Source: Bacillota bacterium
GTDB taxonomy: Bacteria; Bacillota; Clostridia; Saccharofermentanales; UBA5734
DNA: 49,614 nt
NCBI GenBank assembly: GCA_033549405.1
Contig: JAWSUP010000001.1
Coordinates: forward strand, 1-49,614
Reading direction: 5' to 3'
Below the pieces are notes generated by a model that worked only from the letters and a program-made list of their open reading frames with translations, searched no databases and was not told the DNA's origin. Positions within the stretch are counted from its first letter, which is position 1; each line of letters opens with the position of its first letter. This document shows positions 36,858 through 43,980 of this stretch, in pieces. The position numbers and the translations under genes were made by a program.

Positions 36858-38135
36858 ATGCCTGCCATGATCAAACCCAGCAATGAGAACTACCGCCGAT
36901 CGGTCATCCTTTATATGGTTGTCCTTGCCCTTGCTGCTCTAGGTGCGGGATTGTCCGATACAGTTCTGTCCAACTATTTCAAAGACGCCTACCAGGTCAC
37001 AGCGCTCCAGCGCGGCCTGATCGAGATCCCGCGCGAAATACCAGGATTTATCGGTGTCTTTATTGTCTCGTGGCTGGCATTTCTCGGCGATCTGCGCATT
37101 GCCATCCTGGCCCAGACGCTCATGGTGATCGGGCTTTTATTGCTCGGTTTGCTGACGCCGGCATTTTCTGTCATGCTCGTCTTCATCTTCATCCATTCGC
37201 TGGGCGGCCACCTCTGGTACCCGCTGCAGGATACACTCGGCCTGCACATGATCCGGGACAACGGCACGGCCGGCAAGCTGATCGGACGTTTCAAAGGAAT
37301 CAGCACAGCCTTCGGCATGGTGGCCGGCATTATCGTCTATATCGGTTTTCGCAGCAACATTTTTAGTTTTACAACCCCGGTCAAGACAATCTTCATCATC
37401 GCCATGGTGCTGTTCTCAGCCGTCCTGTTTTTTCTGTTTCTGCTCAAACGGCAAATGCCTGATGAACGGGCCGCCAATGCTGAAGGAGAACCGCTCAGTC
37501 GGCGATTCGGCATGAAAAGCCGGCGGATCCGGCTGGTCTTTCACCGGGAATACCGTTTTTATTACGCCCTGGCAGTCGTTTTCGGCGTGCAAAAGCAGAT
37601 CATGTTTGTCTTCGCTCCCTGGGTCCTGATCGATCTGCTCAACAAAAAGGCCGACACCCTGGCCTTGCTGACCATCGCCGGCTCATTTATCGGCATCTTT
37701 TTCATCCCGGCACTCGGTCGCTGGGTTGACCGCTTCGGTATCAAGAAAATGCTATACGTCGACGCGTTCTCGTTCATTATGGTCTATATCCTCTATGGTC
37801 TGGTCAGTGCCGGCTTTCATACCGGCTTTCTGGCGAAAACCGGCTTGCCGGTCATCCTGGCATTCATCCTCTTCGTCATCGACCGCATGTCCATGCAGAT
37901 GGGGCTGATTCGGTCGCTCTACCTGCGCAACATCGCCATCCGGCCTGAAGACATCGCGCCGACACTGACCCTCGGCCAGAGCATGGACCATGTCGTCTCC
38001 ATCACCTGCGCCGCCCTGGGCGGACTGGTCTGGAGCATCTGGGGACCGCAATACGTCTTTTTCCTGGCTGCAATGCTCTCCGTGATCAACTACATCGTCG
38101 CCCGCATGGCGGTCATTCGCGAAACGCCGGCCTGA
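36858..38135 (+). CDS. MFS transporter
   Basis: About 12 TM helices in a two-halves arrangement with a basic central loop. Confidence 0.75.
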   Translation: MPAMIKPSNENYRRSVILYMVVLALAALGAGLSDTVLSNYFKDAYQVTALQRGLIEIPREIPGFIGVFIVSWLAFLGDLRIAILAQTLMVIGLLLLGLLTPAFSVMLVFIFIHSLGGHLWYPLQDTLGLHMIRDNGTAGKLIGRFKGISTAFGMVAGIIVYIGFRSNIFSFTTPVKTIFIIAMVLFSAVLFFLFLLKRQMPDERAANAEGEPLSRRFGMKSRRIRLVFHREYRFYYALAVVFGVQKQIMFVFAPWVLIDLLNKKADTLALLTIAGSFIGIFFIPALGRWVDRFGIKKMLYVDAFSFIMVYILYGLVSAGFHTGFLAKTGLPVILAFILFVIDRMSMQMGLIRSLYLRNIAIRPEDIAPTLTLGQSMDHVVSITCAALGGLVWSIWGPQYVFFLAAMLSVINYIVARMAVIRETPA

Positions 38136-38138
38136 TTT

Positions 38139-38475
38139 GTGAAACTTATTGAGCAGGCTACTTTATGACAACAACCAACGTCAGCGATGTGCCATCTTCA
38201 GGCTTTGCTCTTGTAACTAATCTCAGAAAACAGCTTGAGCTTCTCAACATCTATACTTTTACCGATGATGAATGGAATCAATTTTAAAATTAACGAATCG
38301 CCAGCAGCAATGAAGGCTTAGTTGAGAAAACGCGTAAAATTCAGACTGATCATGTGCAGATCTTGCGGCGTGATGATGACTCAACCAAAAACATCTATCT
38401 AATTGATAAGAAGAACATTCATAACAACCGGCTTCAAGTCATCAACCAATACGAAGAAGCTGGCGGCTCACATGA
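38139..38475 (+). pseudogene. hsdR: type I (IC, EcoR124I-like) restriction enzyme HsdR N-terminal fragment
   Basis: [94 protein letters not shown] is collinear with EcoR124I HsdR residues about 70-160 (ANVREQLQNLNGVVFNDSEWRRF...DKTRKIHIDY...[28 protein letters not shown]). There are two in-frame TAA codons (38285, 38291), an upstream frameshift, and truncation at both ends. Confidence 0.75.
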
Positions 38476-38540
38476 TACACCCTGTCTATACTCTTGCATT
38501 GCTTGCAACTTTTAATAGCCACATAATGGTAGACTTATAC

Positions 38541-39437
38541 TCAAGTCCAAATAGTTTCATAGATATCTGCATAATCATCAACATCTATCACTTCAAATCC
38601 AACCCTCTCAAGAAAAAACTTTTTACCTTGGTCTATTTCATTATTGCTTCGAGTATTTATATACCAGCCTTTATGTTTTCTGTCCGGAAACCTTCTGAAA
38701 TATTTAATCCTTTCAATGAGAATCCACCTTAAAAATGTTTCGTTCTCTTCAAGACCTAATCCAAAAACAAATAGAGATTTATTAAAGATAGTATGCAACC
38801 AGGTTTTGTAACCTTTCCAATTTGATTTGTCTTTTCCCGAAAAAAGTATTTCTTCACTTCCTTTGTGTATTAAATTTCTTGCTCTTTCAACACTGCCCAT
38901 ATAATCGCTTAATCCTAAACGAATACTCCTATGATAGTTTATCATTCCATTTATATACCAGATTCCGAACCCATCTGTGGGCATTTTAAGTTGTTTTATT
39001 CCATGATATGTGCTCCATGGATAAAAATCTGTAAAACCTTCTTGTTCGATCCTAAATTGTTGAAAATCAAATACTCGGGCAAGTGACTCCTCGTAATTCG
39101 TGGTTAGTATTGGACAATCTAGATCTTTTATACGGTTTATGATTTTTGAATGATGAGATAGGGGGTCCCATTCTCCCATTAAGTTTGATATTTCTTTTTT
39201 TAGATTTATTCCTTGTTCATTTTCAAGTTCTAGGATATCAAAAAACTCAGTGGTTGAAATTCCTTTGGGTCTTACTGTAAGTGTTTGAAACGATACCCTT
39301 TCCCATAATTGTATTAATAAATCATCCCATGAAAGTACATTTGGATTATTTGGATACCTATTAATTCCATTACCAATTATAAAAGCGATATCATTTTTGT
39401 TGCGCTCTATAATTCTTCTTATCTCATTAGTTGTCAT
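38541..39437 (-). CDS. short SIR2_2-like (ThsA-type SIR2 fold) protein
   Basis: Motif order matches the SIR2_2 domain of ThsA: FIIGNGINRY (GxG loop), ILTTNYEESLARVF (TTNYD-like), IWYINGM...LGLSDY (at the position of xxHG...DY), and LFVFGLGLEENETFLRWIL (FVGFSFTDPN-like). Start set at MTTNEI, preceded by GAGGAG. Confidence 0.68.
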   Translation of the reverse strand: MTTNEIRRIIERNKNDIAFIIGNGINRYPNNPNVLSWDDLLIQLWERVSFQTLTVRPKGISTTEFFDILELENEQGINLKKEISNLMGEWDPLSHHSKIINRIKDLDCPILTTNYEESLARVFDFQQFRIEQEGFTDFYPWSTYHGIKQLKMPTDGFGIWYINGMINYHRSIRLGLSDYMGSVERARNLIHKGSEEILFSGKDKSNWKGYKTWLHTIFNKSLFVFGLGLEENETFLRWILIERIKYFRRFPDRKHKGWYINTRSNNEIDQGKKFFLERVGFEVIDVDDYADIYETIWT

Positions 39438-39554
39438 CTTAACACTCCTCACACTTCAATTTTTGTTTATAACTCCACTGGATCACTATTTAAGATTGAG
39501 ACACAACTAAGCTTATTCGTAGCCGCTAAGAAAATACGACAGATCAACTAATTA

Positions 39555-40064
39555 TTATTGATACAATGCAATTATTTCCAATTGATATACGGGCTTGTCG
39601 TGGATTGATGCAATTGCACTCGCCTCGAAATCAAATATGTTTCCATCGGCAAAACTACTCATTGCCTCTATGAAATCTTTTTTGGCTCTAGGATCTTTAA
39701 TTTTTGTAAAAATGGTATTTTTCATCAATTCTGTACCTTCGGGGTAAATGCGCTTAACCTGAGCTAAGCAATTAAGTTGTGTTCCGATAATATCAGCCCT
39801 AGACGCTTGATATAGATTTGCATCTACTATATTGCTAATGACAGCATATCCTTTTGTCTCATACAGTATTTCCTCCCCATTGAAAATCACAGATGGATTG
39901 CCTGTCTGTTTACCGGTAAAAGCTTCGGTGTATTTCTTTTCTACCAGATCCCAGGGGATGATCTGAGTCATTTTGACCCAGCGGTTACCCTGAAATATCC
40001 GAGCGCCATGGAAACCACTTGGCCAGTCATGGAACGTAAGCTGTTTGGTGCGTTTCTTGATCAT
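39555..40064 (-). CDS. chimeric ORF: IS transposase N-terminal fragment fused in frame to the AT-rich unknown partner ORF of the SIR2 gene
   Basis: Residues 1-57 (QLTFHDW...NRWVKMTQIIPWDLVEKKYTEAFTGKQTGNP) match the DUF772-type N-terminus of IS5/IS1182-family transposases. From about 39893 downward the composition switches to AT-rich and the sequence has no recognisable motif. Confidence 0.5.
   Translation of the reverse strand: MIKKRTKQLTFHDWPSGFHGARIFQGNRWVKMTQIIPWDLVEKKYTEAFTGKQTGNPSVIFNGEEILYETKGYAVISNIVDANLYQASRADIIGTQLNCLAQVKRIYPEGTELMKNTIFTKIKDPRAKKDFIEAMSSFADGNIFDFEASAIASIHDKPVYQLEIIALYQ
39894..40064 (-). mobile_element. IS5/IS1182-family transposase gene fragment (first ~57 codons only)
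   Basis: Same evidence as the chimeric ORF. The catalytic DDE part is absent. Confidence 0.6.
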
Positions 40065-40255
40065 GATAGCTCTCCAAGTGCAAGGATTTTGGCCGTATTC
40101 TGATGCTTTTTATGCATTTCATTATACTATATTTTAGCCAAAATCGCCTGTTGCCAGACCTTGCCGGCTGCGGCAGCAGCCCCTAAATATCATCAAAAAA
40201 GAAATTCTTCTTAGTCAATTGAAAATATTTCTCTCCTTGGGTTTAAAAATCACTC

Positions 40256-40280
40256 AAAAATGTCACGGTATATGAGAGAT
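40256..40280 (+). repeat. direct repeat R1 (AAAAATGTCACGGTATATGAGAGA)
   Basis: Shares AAAATGTCAsGGyTATrwGAGRG with R2 and R3. Confidence 0.8.
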
Positions 40281-40376
40281 AGTTTTCCTCTCGTTGAAAT
40301 AGACAACCAAAATCAAGAACGCAAGAACGTTTGTTTATTTTGACGATTTTTGAAAATGACCCCCTACAAATGGCCA

Positions 40377-40401
40377 AAAAATGTCAGGGCTTATGAGAGG
40401 T
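40377..40401 (+). repeat. direct repeat R2 (AAAAATGTCAGGGCTTATGAGAGG)
   Basis: Degenerate copy of R1/R3. Confidence 0.7.
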
Positions 40402-40432
40402 AATTTTTCAGAGGGCATTAACTATTGACCTG

Positions 40433-40457
40433 AAAATGTCACGGTATATAAGAGGAA
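40433..40457 (+). repeat. direct repeat R3 (AAAATGTCACGGTATATAAGAGGA), preceded by TTGACC
   Basis: Nearly identical to R1. TTGACC plus a 16-17 nt spacer plus TATAAG/ATAAGA could form a promoter for the xis-like gene. Confidence 0.75.
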
Positions 40458-40515
40458 CTTTATTTCTCACACCACACCTTGAAAACCAAATAGAGAAAAA
40501 GGAGAAAGCAAAACG

Positions 40516-40734
40516 ATGACTACATCCGAAAACACACCTAAGAAGAATGACACCTACCGCGTGGATCATCCCAGATTCATGAGCGCTGATGAGATCGCCC
40601 AGACCTGTGGCATCTCTCGCTCCAACGCCTACCGACTGATCCGCAAGCTCAACCTTCAGCTTGAGCAGAAGAACAAAATCACAGTCGCCGGTAAAATCAG
40701 CCGCTGCTACTTCGAAGAAATGGCGGAGCTTTGA
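40516..40734 (+). CDS. xis: excisionase-family / MerR-AlpA-like HTH DNA-binding protein
   Basis: MSADEIAQTCGISRSNAYRLIRKLN...ITVAGKISRCYFEE is the typical pattern for the small HTH gene preceding tyrosine integrases of Firmicutes integrative elements. GGAGAAAG RBS. Confidence 0.68.
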   Translation: MTTSENTPKKNDTYRVDHPRFMSADEIAQTCGISRSNAYRLIRKLNLQLEQKNKITVAGKISRCYFEEMAEL

Positions 40735-40805
40735 TTGATGAACAAACAGCCGGAGACAATCATCACGATAACACTAGATTACAGTAAACAGAAAGGACTT
40801 AGCTG

Positions 40806-41044
40806 ATGCCGGTATATAAGAACGAAGAAAAGGGCACTGGTTTTGTGCTTTCTATTACACCGACTGGATGGGCAATCACAAGAAGATGAAAAAGGAAGGA
40901 TTCAGGACGCTGCGTGAGGCGAAAGCCTATGAGCGCTATTTCCTTGAGAAGGCAGCTGCCCGGCCTAACATGAGCTTCAGTACACTGGTCGCGATCTATA
41001 TGGAGGACTGCAAGACCCGGCTCAAGCAGACGACTGGTGTATGA
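40806..41044 (+). pseudogene. int: tyrosine integrase (Tn916/phage-type) N-terminal remnant, frameshifted and truncated
   Basis: MPVYKNEEKG, then a 1-nt frame slip near 40836, then WFCAFYYTDWMGNHKKMKKEGFRTLREAKAYERYFLEKAAARPNMSFSTLVAIYMEDCKTRLKQTT. This is the arm-binding/SAM-like N-terminus. The catalytic domain is absent. Confidence 0.7.
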
Positions 41045-41263: not shown

Positions 41264-41533
41264 TCACTCAAATAAATCACTATGCGTTCCTGTGCGCTCA
41301 AACACAATAATGCCATTTCCAACTTGATAAATCAGTAACCAGTCTGGTTTTATATGGCACTCACGACAACCCTCAAATCCTCCGGACAAGGCATGGTCTT
41401 TATGCTTAGCATCCAAGGGATGTTCATTTATCAGGTTACGGATTATAGCGTCAATCAACGAAATGTTATAATTCCGCTTGGCAGCCAGTTTGTAATCCTT
41501 CTTAAATCTGCCTGTATAGTCAGGAGTCAGCAT
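41264..41533 (-). CDS. yafQ: type II toxin-antitoxin toxin, YafQ/RelE family mRNA interferase
   Basis: TGRFKKDYKLAAKRN...HPLDAKHKDHALSG...RECHIKPDWLLIY...FERTGTHSDLF. Confidence 0.87.
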   Translation of the reverse strand: MLTPDYTGRFKKDYKLAAKRNYNISLIDAIIRNLINEHPLDAKHKDHALSGGFEGCRECHIKPDWLLIYQVGNGIIVFERTGTHSDLFE

Positions 41534-41805
41534 CAGCGTTTCAATTCCTTTAACATATCGTTGGCGCCGCTAAACCGAACTTTACCGGACTTGATGATTT
41601 CGTCACCTTCTTTTATTGCTTCCAGCGTTTCAGCGTTAGGCGCAGGGGGACGCAAATCAAATGGAAGTCCGCCAACAATCCTTGATGTGTAAAGGAACAC
41701 ATTGATCGCATCGGTAATACTCATGCCGTATCGAGAATAAATTGTTTCAACTTCTGCTTTTACTTGCGGATCGATACGAATATACATGCTTGCACTTTTA
41801 GCCAC
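41533..41805 (-). CDS. dinJ: type II antitoxin, RelB/DinJ family
   Basis: IRIDPQVKAEVETIYSRYGMSITDAINVFL...GGLPFDL. A GTG start at 41805 is preceded by AGAGGTGA. The stop overlaps the yafQ ATG. Confidence 0.85.
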   Translation of the reverse strand: MAKSASMYIRIDPQVKAEVETIYSRYGMSITDAINVFLYTSRIVGGLPFDLRPPAPNAETLEAIKEGDEIIKSGKVRFSGANDMLKELKR

Positions 41806-41913
41806 TCTAATCACCTCTTTCAGGACACATTTGATCATATCACATATTATGTACAAATGCAATACATTGTGATCTAAATATGCTCTTATCACGGAAAGAG
41901 AAAAAGAGCCTGA

Positions 41914-42162
41914 TCATTTCTTCTCTTTACGCTCGAAAAACGACAAGATCAGCGACAAAGCGCAAAGACCTATGGCGAGGTAGATCCAGGGACGGTTTGA
42001 CGTCAATGGACAAGTGCCTGCCGGCGCCCTGTTGAAAATATACATATCAGCCAAAAGATAGATGACAATGGCCAGCGACAAACCGAGCAGGACATTGCCA
42101 ATGATCTTCAGTGCTTTTTGGTCGCCTGCGCCACTTACCGGTTTTTTTATATAGCGGTTCAT
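41914..42162 (-). CDS. small two-TM membrane protein, unknown function
   Basis: Two hydrophobic helices. Overlaps the fucosidase stop by 4 nt. Confidence 0.45.
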   Translation of the reverse strand: MNRYIKKPVSGAGDQKALKIIGNVLLGLSLAIVIYLLADMYIFNRAPAGTCPLTSNRPWIYLAIGLCALSLILSFFERKEKK

Positions 42163-43403
42163 CGGAAGACTCCAACCTGCTTCAGGCGTGCTGTTTTGCC
42201 TGGTCTGCTGATCAGCCTGATCTCAAGGGCACGGGCGTACAGCGACGGCAGGCGGATGATGTGCTTGTGCCCGATCGATCCGCCGCGGCAAACCTCAACC
42301 TGCAGCGGACCCTGGATATGCCCGGGCGAGAACAGAACCTGGTAGCCTGCCACCGCCTGACCCTCTGTCAGATCTTCTTGCAGAACCAGCGTGCCGATCA
42401 TTTCCGGTGATGCAAACGCAATCTGGACACGGTCCTCTTCATCGGTGACAGCGGTATTGATCGGCCTGGCAAAGCGATGGCGCAGAGCCTGGCCGAATTC
42501 ATCCAGACGGGCGACGTCGGCATCCGGCAAAGCGCCGCGTCTGTCAGGCGGTATATTCATCAGAAAATTGCAACCACGACCGACCGAATAATCATAGATG
42601 CCCATCAGCTCATCGACAGTCTTGATGGTGTGTTCATCGCAGTCAGAATAAAACCAGTTGCGCCCGCGCAGGCGGAAATCGCATTCGGCCGGCAGGAAGC
42701 GGACCACCGGCTGGTCGATCTGCGGGAAATGGCTGTCATCTGCCGGATAAGAGACGAGATAGTCGAGATTCGGCGGGGCAAATCCCTCTTCATTGCCGAT
42801 CCAGCGGACATCGTGATCCCACATGCCAAACAGCAGAAGATCCGGCTGCAGTGACCGCATGGTTCGGACAATCCGCGCCGTGTCATATTGGTGCCCTTCA
42901 GAGCCGCAGCCGTCAAACCACAAGTAATCGATCTTGCTGTAATTGGACAGAAGCTCCGATATCTGGTTGACAAAAAAGTCATCGTGCTCCTGAGCTGTCC
43001 GTTTACCCGTTTTCATGGCGGCATCGGCCGGTGAATAGTAAAGGCCGATCTTGATCCCATAGGTGCGGCAGGCATCGGTGAAAGCACGTACGACATCACC
43101 CTGGCCATTTTCCCAGGAACTTGACGCGACCGAATAATCCGAGTAGCGTGTCGGCCAGTTGGCGAATCCGTCATGATGCTTGCAGGTAAGGATGGCATAG
43201 GTCATCCCGGCCGCCTTGATGGCGCGCATCCACTGGCCGCAATCCAGCTGTGTCGGATTGAATCCGGCGGCAGGCATCGGTCGCCCGTCCCAGTCGCGAT
43301 GGCCTTCATAAAATGTACGGATGCCGAAATGGAAAAAAGCGCCCATCTCCCAATCCATAAAAGCAAGTTGTGCCGCTGTCGGTTTTTGTCTTACCAGATC
43401 CAT
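42159..43403 (-). CDS. alpha-L-fucosidase (GH29)
   Basis: FFHFGIRTF, TCKHHDGFANWPT and YLWFDG motifs. Start set at MDLVRQ, preceded by GGAGGA. Confidence 0.85.
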   Translation of the reverse strand: MDLVRQKPTAAQLAFMDWEMGAFFHFGIRTFYEGHRDWDGRPMPAAGFNPTQLDCGQWMRAIKAAGMTYAILTCKHHDGFANWPTRYSDYSVASSSWENGQGDVVRAFTDACRTYGIKIGLYYSPADAAMKTGKRTAQEHDDFFVNQISELLSNYSKIDYLWFDGCGSEGHQYDTARIVRTMRSLQPDLLLFGMWDHDVRWIGNEEGFAPPNLDYLVSYPADDSHFPQIDQPVVRFLPAECDFRLRGRNWFYSDCDEHTIKTVDELMGIYDYSVGRGCNFLMNIPPDRRGALPDADVARLDEFGQALRHRFARPINTAVTDEEDRVQIAFASPEMIGTLVLQEDLTEGQAVAGYQVLFSPGHIQGPLQVEVCRGGSIGHKHIIRLPSLYARALEIRLISRPGKTARLKQVGVFR

Positions 43404-43446
43404 CTTGTCCTCCATTACTCCAGGACTCAGCCCGGCTAATAAGTTG

Positions 43447-43980
43447 TTATGTAATTGATACATCCGACTCGATCGTGACCCAGGTCGGTGTATGTCCGGT
43501 TGACTGCAGAAACGATCCAAAAAAATCCCGGCCTGCCATGACCAGGCTGGCCGTATTGACACAGGGATGAAAACTCAGCTTCTCAGAGTTTTGCAGATCG
43601 CGGTCGACCAGCAGTTGGACATGGTTCACCGCGTCAAACATCAGACCAAGCGGCGAGATACCGCCGGGCTTCGTCTGCAGATGCTTCCAGAGCAGTTCGG
43701 GTCCGGCAAAAGAAAGCCGGGCAACACCAAGCTGTTTGGATACGGAAGCTGTCCGGAAAGCCTTGTGGCCGGCCAGCAGCAACAGGTAGAAGGTGGTCTG
43801 CTGGCGGTTGCACAGGAACAGGTTTTTCGGATGGTCCGCGCCCAATTCACGATCGACAGCCGCAAGGTCATCCATCGTCATGGCCGGTTCATGGTGCATG
43901 AGGCGGTAAGAGATGCCCAGGTGGCCCAGGGCGTTCAAAACGGTGTTTTCAACCTGATCGATTGGCCTGACTTCTTTCAT
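43447..43980 (-). CDS. YbaK/ProX-type aminoacyl-tRNA editing domain protein
   Basis: KNLFLCNRQQTTFYLLLL.GHK, GGISPLGL and SFHPCVNTA motifs. Confidence 0.78.
   Translation of the reverse strand: MKEVRPIDQVENTVLNALGHLGISYRLMHHEPAMTMDDLAAVDRELGADHPKNLFLCNRQQTTFYLLLLAGHKAFRTASVSKQLGVARLSFAGPELLWKHLQTKPGGISPLGLMFDAVNHVQLLVDRDLQNSEKLSFHPCVNTASLVMAGRDFFGSFLQSTGHTPTWVTIESDVSIT

Follow-up and report, generated by a model that had tools for sequence, protein, structure and literature searches.

Do two small, co-oriented genes in the genome of a Bacillota bacterium (Clostridia; Saccharofermentanales; UBA5734) make up an undescribed two-gene SIR2 defense module? The genes lie in a 49,614-nucleotide (nt) stretch of DNA, hereafter called the window (assembly GCA_033549405.1, contig JAWSUP010000001.1, positions 1 to 49,614), and consist of an open reading frame (ORF) for a 298-amino-acid (aa) SIR2-like protein and a second ORF upstream of it. 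An earlier, sequence-only reading of the locus took the two for a stand-alone SIR2_2-like protein and an upstream partner of unknown family. Our data do not support such a module. Rather, sequence comparisons and structural models make it fairly probable that the locus holds a single intact cassette, encoding a stand-alone SIR2-like protein of a mobile, unnamed family with a presumed role in the processing of nicotinamide adenine dinucleotide (NAD+), left within a decayed island of independent cargo genes.

Judging from its sequence, the SIR2-like ORF is a real, intact gene. It has an ATG start with a GGAG upstream, and an alternative GTG start at position 39452 would give a 303-aa product. 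The ratio of nonsynonymous to synonymous substitution rates (dN/dS) is ~0.19 against two close copies, consistent with purifying selection on the gene. No record of the exact window protein was found in the contig index. Both ORFs are present where they had first been reported, and the motifs quoted for the SIR2-like protein were all recovered, i.e., FIIGNGIN, ILTTNYEE, IWYINGM, and FGLGLEENE, which correspond to a G22-N23-G24 loop, T112-T113-N114, N163-G164 at the His-Gly position, and G226...E233, respectively.

Predicted structure and remote homology both place this protein with the SIR2 proteins of immune systems. An AlphaFold2 model built on 34 relatives had a predicted local distance difference test score (pLDDT) of 89.4 and a predicted template modeling score (pTM) of 0.90. 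When the model was compared with the PDB by Foldseek, a check that had been suggested at the outset, ranks 1 to 17 were all immune SIR2 proteins (ThsA, KomC, DSR2, Avs5, human FAM118B, and SPARSA), with E values of 8e-10 to 7e-5, whereas classical sirtuins reached only ~5e-3. A viral structure library gave no convincing match, and searching PDB sequences with the family profile brought up nothing relevant. Profile-profile alignment (hhalign) of a 132-member family profile with the PF13289 (SIR2_2) family, represented by 120 annotated proteins gathered starting from a canonical SIR2 gene in locus L031, gave a probability of 96.5% and an E value of 7.5e-10 over 236 aligned columns, pairing GNG with GSG, TTNYE with TTNFD, FGIWYING with viKLHG, and GLGLEENE with CGWSAEWD. 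The placement of the HG motif on RLGL-SDY was rejected as a misplacement from low-probability hhalign runs (0.4 to 72%; a 34-sequence alignment against single canonical SIR2s and a close-relative profile against the canonical family); the diverse 132-member profile alone resolved it. Among the 132 diverse representatives, T112, N114, and G164 are found in 132/132 and Y179 is also invariant, while the G22/N23/G24 loop is conserved in ~97% and G226 and E233 in 131/132. Model and alignments thus indicate that the protein has a SIR2 fold of the immune type, which has kept the NAD-site signature apart from the His, in line with the SIR2_2-type homologue of ~298 aa that had originally been read from the sequence.

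The upstream ORF (39555 to 40064, minus strand, 169 aa) is both 5′-truncated and fused, as had been suspected, and joins a fragment of an IS5-family insertion sequence (IS) to the 111 codons at the 3′ end of a DUF6414 gene. Its residues 59 to 169 are 77% identical (BLASTP) to residues 176 to 286 of an intact 286-aa DUF6414 protein encoded on a metagenomic contig, L001, and ~96% identical to the DUF6414 protein of another locus, L097; nucleotide homology to the latter extends from 39903 to 39547 at 95.8%. The Pfam DUF6414 score of the remnant is 18 bits (cutoff, 25), covering profile positions 185 to 283 of 283, while that of the intact L001 homologue is 87 bits over the whole model. Residues 25 to 58 match positions 15 to 47 of the 419 of the NCBIfam model transpos_IS5_1 (E value, 4.8e-4), with the breakpoint between the two parts falling between 39891 and 39903. 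The window contains no further part of the IS, and a tblastn search of it found no second copy. In view of the DUF6414 homology, the upstream protein is, contrary to the earlier claim of an unknown family, a remnant of the family to which DolA belongs; Dodola comprises two genes, the second of which encodes a ClpB-like ATPase (bioRxiv 10.1101/2024.10.26.620412; PMC11514479). PADLOC gave no DolA match for the intact L001 protein and neither DolA nor DolB among the recurrent upstream and downstream neighbors of DUF6414, only weak matches to PDC-M37A and PDC-S11. AlphaFold2 modeled the intact DUF6414 protein poorly (pLDDT, 58), Foldseek with this model returned only noise, and a PDB sequence search with the protein was empty.

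Whether the two genes belong together was examined in 80 genome loci with 6-kb flanks plus metagenomic contexts, which provided 76 nonredundant loci with a SIR2-like relative. Clustering by blastp of the four genes on each side in the 80 loci revealed no neighbor family in common beyond close strain relatives, and among 76 upstream and 78 downstream neighbors scanned with Pfam, no family occurred in more than 3 to 4 loci. DUF6414 lies upstream in 1/76 loci, that of L001, as confirmed by tblastn with the intact DUF6414 across all loci. A partner conserved among the homologues was the condition that the sequence-only reading had itself set beforehand; none is conserved, and the two-gene module is therefore not supported.

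The nearest relatives of each gene, moreover, occur without the other. In L014, which has the closest SIR2-like copy outside L001 (90% identical), there is neither DUF6414 nor any other ORF upstream, and homology to the window spans 38483 to 39557, the whole spacer included, before it stops. Conversely, L097 has the closest DUF6414 copy (96% identical) and no SIR2-like gene downstream; here, homology ends at 39547, ~8 nt beyond the DUF6414 stop codon, and is followed by different sequence. These two end points reveal a cassette boundary exactly between the genes, and on the nucleotide alignments the spacer goes with the SIR2-like gene rather than with DUF6414. The synonymous divergence (dS) from L001 is 0.19 for the SIR2-like gene versus 0.65 for the DUF6414 segment, indicating that the two have different histories. 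DUF6414 relatives at 57 to 74% identity adjoin other genes, none with a SIR2-like neighbor: DUF6414 is located between hsdS and hsdM in L096 (3 to 3067), after methylase and AlwI/HNH endonuclease genes in L094 (150 to 4861), L011 (1862 to 5852), and L007 (2904 to 5861), after RelB-YafQ in L097, and alone in L010. As an additional observation, the relatives embedded in restriction-modification (R-M) loci are often tightly coupled to an unannotated upstream gene of 250 to 305 aa, and this clade is not recognized by the PADLOC DolA models.

It could still be argued that the pair is a lineage-specific two-gene system in which a DolA-family sensor or adaptor acts with a SIR2-like effector, i.e., a variant of Dodola with SIR2 replacing the ClpB-like DolB, and that the window copy was inactivated by IS-mediated truncation of the partner. 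Two diverged lineages, those of the window and L001, have the genes side by side in the same orientation, with a similar ~115-nt spacer in both, and the divergence of the two DUF6414 alleles could mean that the pairing has persisted. DolA, itself assigned to DUF6414 in Pfam, also acts together with a second gene in Dodola, and DUF6414 relatives adjoin variable genes in defense or R-M loci, as a modular component might. A lineage-specific functional link between the two genes may thus exist. However, a two-gene system of this kind is very unlikely considering that the pairing is found in 1/76 SIR2-like loci and 1/~8 distinct DUF6414 contexts, that each gene is missing beside the other's closest relative, that the homology blocks end exactly between the genes and their dS values are discordant, that the SIR2-like gene is intact while its supposed partner is broken, and that the PADLOC DolA models miss the intact L001 protein. 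On the sequence comparisons, the DUF6414 remnant is a neighbor and not a partner of the SIR2-like gene, the result of chance juxtaposition in a decaying island.

The SIR2-like protein itself has relatives in large numbers. These amount to 1041 in a 90%-cluster database and to 1192 representative clusters at 50% identity (E value of ≤1e-3), of which 261 reach 1e-30. A pattern-limited genome scan gave 213 loci confirmed by tblastn, with Bacteroidota in the majority; further hosts include Sphingomonadales, Burkholderiales, and Acidobacteriota and, as metagenome-assembled genomes (MAGs), Actinomycetota and Thermoplasmatota. Identity between copies from unrelated hosts (Bacteroidota, Pseudomonadota, Acidobacteriota, and an archaeal MAG) is 77 to 90%. 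The usual length is ~300 aa, some members having an insertion of ~100 aa in the helical subdomain, and the names given at the source are all “hypothetical protein” or the generic “SIR2-like domain-containing protein.” The family is thus very large and unnamed, and its spread, together with a GC content of 0.35 to 0.39 for the window cassette in a genome of ~0.55, suggests horizontal mobility. Among plasmids, it was detected in 4/72,556 records, and the phage collection contained no genuine match, the single match being a 501-kb Salmonella enterica contig. One member, P0465 (663 aa, His at position 163), combines the SIR2-like domain with a C-terminal array of leucine-rich repeat (LRR)-like “GNxLTSLxGCPTxV” repeats; such an effector-plus-repeat-sensor architecture is typical of immune receptors.

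An association of the family with defense is suggestive. At least 16/154 immediate neighbors match PADLOC models at an E value of ≤1e-5 (raw count), including mad2 (3 loci), HamB (2 loci), PDC-M23B (2 loci), Avs3a, PDC-S32, TmtA, SduA, PDC-M11B, PDC-S10, LmuA, and Csa3. Single contexts feature HsdR, an OLD-type nuclease together with an integrase, LmuA-like and DSR2-like genes, and AbiEii, DUF3883, and RES toxin genes. Many of the surveyed neighbors, on the other hand, are housekeeping genes (carbamoyl-phosphate synthase, single-stranded DNA-binding protein, tRNA synthetase, and epimerases). Together with the near absence of the family from phages, its rarity on plasmids, the lack of a sensor domain or partner, and the toxin-antitoxin (TA) modules nearby, this could point to a mobile accessory enzyme unrelated to defense, such as an ADP-ribosyltransferase or a deacylase, or to an interbacterial or plasmid-addiction toxin riding on islands. 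We find this explanation highly improbable, since the fold is nearest to immune SIR2s and not to sirtuin deacylases, PADLOC-matching genes are among the immediate neighbors, the gene is found inside R-M and integrase islands, and an LRR-fusion member exists. By analogy with the immune SIR2s, the protein is most likely a single-gene, horizontally mobile NAD+-processing effector, probably acting in defense.

Two of the surveyed loci show additional features. In L002 (7971 to 11834; Allomuricauda/marine contigs), a 1287-aa DSR2-like SIR2 protein, in which a long coiled-coil insertion separates TTNYD from KLHG, is encoded two genes downstream of a member of the family, placing two different SIR2 genes in one island. 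In L001 (4108 to 9967), the intact DUF6414/SIR2-like pair is followed downstream by four co-oriented genes, none of them in the window, with products comprising a 410-aa unknown protein, a 560-aa protein with weak mad8/HerA-like matches, a 522-aa protein with HATPase_c_3, and a weak radical-SAM match. This four-gene set may be a separate uncharacterized defense operon.

In the sequence-only reading, the catalytic His of the xxHG motif had been aligned by eye to an Asn. The 132-member profile alignment shows that this placement was correct, with N163-G164 falling on the canonical His-Gly, and the window copy thus lacks the catalytic His. Of the 132 family representatives, 86 have Asn, 45 His, and 1 Gln in column 163, with His-163 commoner in the members farthest from the window protein. 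With Asn in about two-thirds of the family, the His-to-Asn substitution appears to be a family property and not damage to the window copy. At position 161, which precedes 163 by two residues on the strand they share, 87% of the family have His, and this His could serve as an alternative base in the Asn-163 members; in the window subfamily the position is occupied by Tyr, Phe, or another residue, with Tyr in the window copy. H145, in the TYHG strand, was ruled out as the catalytic His, its column being Y or F in 123/132 representatives.

The Asn could also mean that the SIR2 fold is catalytically dead, i.e., an NAD+- or nucleotide-binding pseudoenzyme with a role in sensing, regulation, or scaffolding. 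The H146A mutation abolishes defense by KomC (PMC13454610), H206A or N163A abolishes NAD processing by FAM118B (PMC12700824), and the equivalent His is also required in ThsA; a KomC H146N mutant, moreover, served for a structure with NAD fragments (PDB 9xvc). The window copy is among the ~8% of the family with no His at either 161 or 163, for which reason it could be weakly active or inactive. A dead enzyme appears unlikely, however, given that the rest of the NAD site is strongly constrained (T112, N114, and G164 being universal among the representatives) and that position 163 switches freely between N and H while the same neighboring residues are conserved, which suggests one shared activity. 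In SirTM, Gln137 is located at the His position, and the protein is a robust ADP-ribosyltransferase (PMC4518038), so that an amide at this site is compatible with NAD+ cleavage and transfer, by a different mechanism. A pseudoenzyme role is possible, especially for the window copy, which has neither H161 nor H163.

Among known systems, the best structural matches of the protein are the effectors of Thoeris and Kongming. ThsA is the best structural match (8bto; E value, 8.4e-10; template modeling [TM] score, 0.65) and shares with it the G-x-G loop, the Asn of TTN(Y/F)D, and the strand-then-xG motif. ThsA, however, has a catalytic His where the SIR2-like protein has Asn, bears a SLOG (or Macro) domain at its C terminus for signal binding, and requires the TIR protein ThsB, whereas the SIR2-like protein consists of the SIR2 domain only and no TIR or SLOG was found among the island ORFs tested or the recurrent neighbors. 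KomC, from the Kongming (KomABC) system, ranks second among the structural matches (8zsf; E value, 1.7e-8; TM score, 0.60 to 0.67) at a sequence identity of ~15%, and is likewise a small, SIR2-only protein without a fused sensor domain (264 to 277 aa versus 298). It is an NAD+-depleting, filament-forming effector which works with KomB (HAM1-like) and KomA (a deaminase) and is switched on by deoxyinosine triphosphate (dITP). KomA and KomB had no Pfam match among the island ORFs tested or in the 25 most frequent neighbor families shown per side, and KomC needs His146, where the SIR2-like protein has Asn.

DSR2, DSR1, and Avs5 have the same SIR2 effector fold (8yg1, E value of 7e-8; 9nc9, E value of 4e-7) and are all single-gene systems, but they span 750 to 1300 aa with dedicated sensor or STAND regions, compared to ~300 aa in the SIR2-like family, where an extension of this kind is known from the rare member P0465 only. 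The window is also distinct from SIR2-HerA (Nezha), with no HerA-type ATPase adjacent to the gene; the 560-aa L001 gene, two positions downstream, has weak matches to mad8 (E value, 1.5e-8) and HerA (E value, 0.005), and that region is absent from the window. The absence of SLOG, HerA, pAgo, TIR, or STAND domains or neighbors from the window had been noted from the start and was borne out. The link to Dodola is confined to the DolA family (DUF6414), of which the remnant retains only the last 111 residues and so does not qualify as DolA, and no ClpB/AAA match for DolB was found among the window-island ORFs or the L001 genes tested. SirTM, finally, resembles the family in having an amide, Gln137, for the catalytic His, with NAD+ still cleaved and ADP-ribose transferred (PMC4518038), and one family member has Gln as well. 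It differs in its classical sirtuin fold, in its link to a macrodomain, which is fused to it or encoded in the same operon, and in modifying the GcvH-L of its own operon, whereas the SIR2-like family most closely resembles the defense-type SIR2 fold and lacks a conserved partner in an operon.

If the gene is indeed a single mobile cassette, independent cargo genes would have been juxtaposed in the island and then eroded. The protein would bind NAD+ via its G-x-G loop, the Asn of TTN(Y/F)(D/E), and the G...E motif and be activated perhaps by self-assembly, as in the filaments of ThsA, KomBC, Avs5, and FAM118B. Once activated, it would cleave NAD+ or transfer ADP-ribose, and the outcome would be NAD+ depletion or target modification to the detriment of the invading phage or element. 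With Asn in place of the general-base His, its chemistry is probably unlike that of the ThsA/DSR2-type NADases and may resemble that of SirTM. A broader, distinctly tentative proposal, again by analogy, is that the ~300-aa family may constitute an unrecognized, widespread single-gene clade of immune SIR2s, mostly Asn-for-His, which would sense infection without a sensor domain or partner and use a different NAD+ chemistry (e.g., SirTM-like ADP-ribosylation of a phage or host target).

Several points weigh against the interpretation of the window gene as a stand-alone NAD+-processing effector. Apart from the missing H161 and H163, the recurrence of the DUF6414 adjacency in L001, and the housekeeping neighbors, the direct match to Pfam SIR2_2 (PF13289) is 16.9 bits (E value, 0.007), under the gathering cutoff of 24.5, and a precomputed PF13289 match exists in just 4/120 closest relatives; the profile check suggested at the outset thus failed for the direct Pfam match and succeeded by profile-profile alignment. 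No named-system model of PADLOC fits the protein, the sole match being a weak one to PDC-S25 (E value, 4.9e-4), which agrees with the initial view that the gene belongs to no named system. Finally, a partnerless NADase that was constitutively active would be toxic, and the locus yielded no regulatory element; a promoter and terminator scan did no better than on shuffled sequence, with one weak promoter-like site (39581 to 39554) not above chance.

The features of the locus (Table 1) lie in a low-GC island at ~38.1 to 42.1 kb, bounded by a major facilitator superfamily transporter gene (36858 to 38135, plus strand) and an alpha-L-fucosidase gene (42159 to 43562, minus strand). Its GC content is 0.35 to 0.43, versus ~0.55 elsewhere in the window, and both this AT-richness and the gap between the two ORFs had been correctly described, as had the relic R-M, integrase, and TA setting.

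Table 1. Features of the low-GC island, with window coordinates
Feature	Position	Strand	Basis
hsdR 5′ remnant, first 42 codons, convergent with SIR2-like gene	38354-38479	+	tblastn to L014
SIR2-like gene (SIR2_2/“SIRim” type), intact, stand-alone, 298 aa	38541-39437	-	ORF, predicted fold, profile alignment
Spacer, 117 nt, with GGAG ribosome-binding site before ATG	39438-39554	-	Sequence
DUF6414 (DolA-family) 3′ remnant, last 111 codons plus stop	39555-39903	-	BLASTP, nucleotide homology, Pfam
IS5-family transposase N-terminal fragment, ~57 codons, in-frame fusion to DUF6414 remnant	39891-40064	-	NCBIfam
Integrative-element remnant	40185-41034	+	blastn, 85% to L001 975-1761
Helix-turn-helix (HTH)/excisionase-like ORF	40516-40734	+	Pfam HTH match
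Integrase N-terminal stub, 58 codons	40868-41044	+	Pfam Arm-DNA-bind_4
RelB-YafQ type II TA pair, intact, at island edge	41264-41892	-	Pfam YafQ_toxin (E value, 6e-34), RelB (E value, 1e-12)

The hsdR stub, from a type I restriction subunit gene, is 95% identical (tblastn) to residues 1 to 42 of a 901-aa protein of L014 (2599 to 5304, minus strand) that matches EcoR124 HsdR with an E value of 6e-234. Window positions 38230 to 38483 align (blastn) to L014 5428 to 5175, and the hsdR body and a neighboring 236-aa gene, both present in L014, have been deleted from the window. Likewise, the integrase region is intact in the matching segment of L001, while the window integrase has been lost. The RelB-YafQ pair has 92% nucleotide identity to L097 positions 1 to 859, where it precedes the intact DUF6414 gene. 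The island is an eroded integrative or defense island, in which only the SIR2-like gene and the TA pair remain as intact cargo.

In practical terms, the two genes of the proposed system were brought together by chance in the decaying island of the window. The SIR2-like protein that is left is an intact representative of a large and unnamed family of single-gene type, in which Asn occurs as a natural substitute for His. Since neither the Pfam thresholds nor PADLOC pick up this family, it is probably undercounted in defense censuses. If active, it would add a compact (~300-aa), partnerless SIR2 effector to the defense repertoire and provide a natural His/Asn polymorphism at the SIR2 catalytic position, which would be a handle on NAD+ cleavage by immune SIR2s and on ADP-ribose transfer versus hydrolysis.

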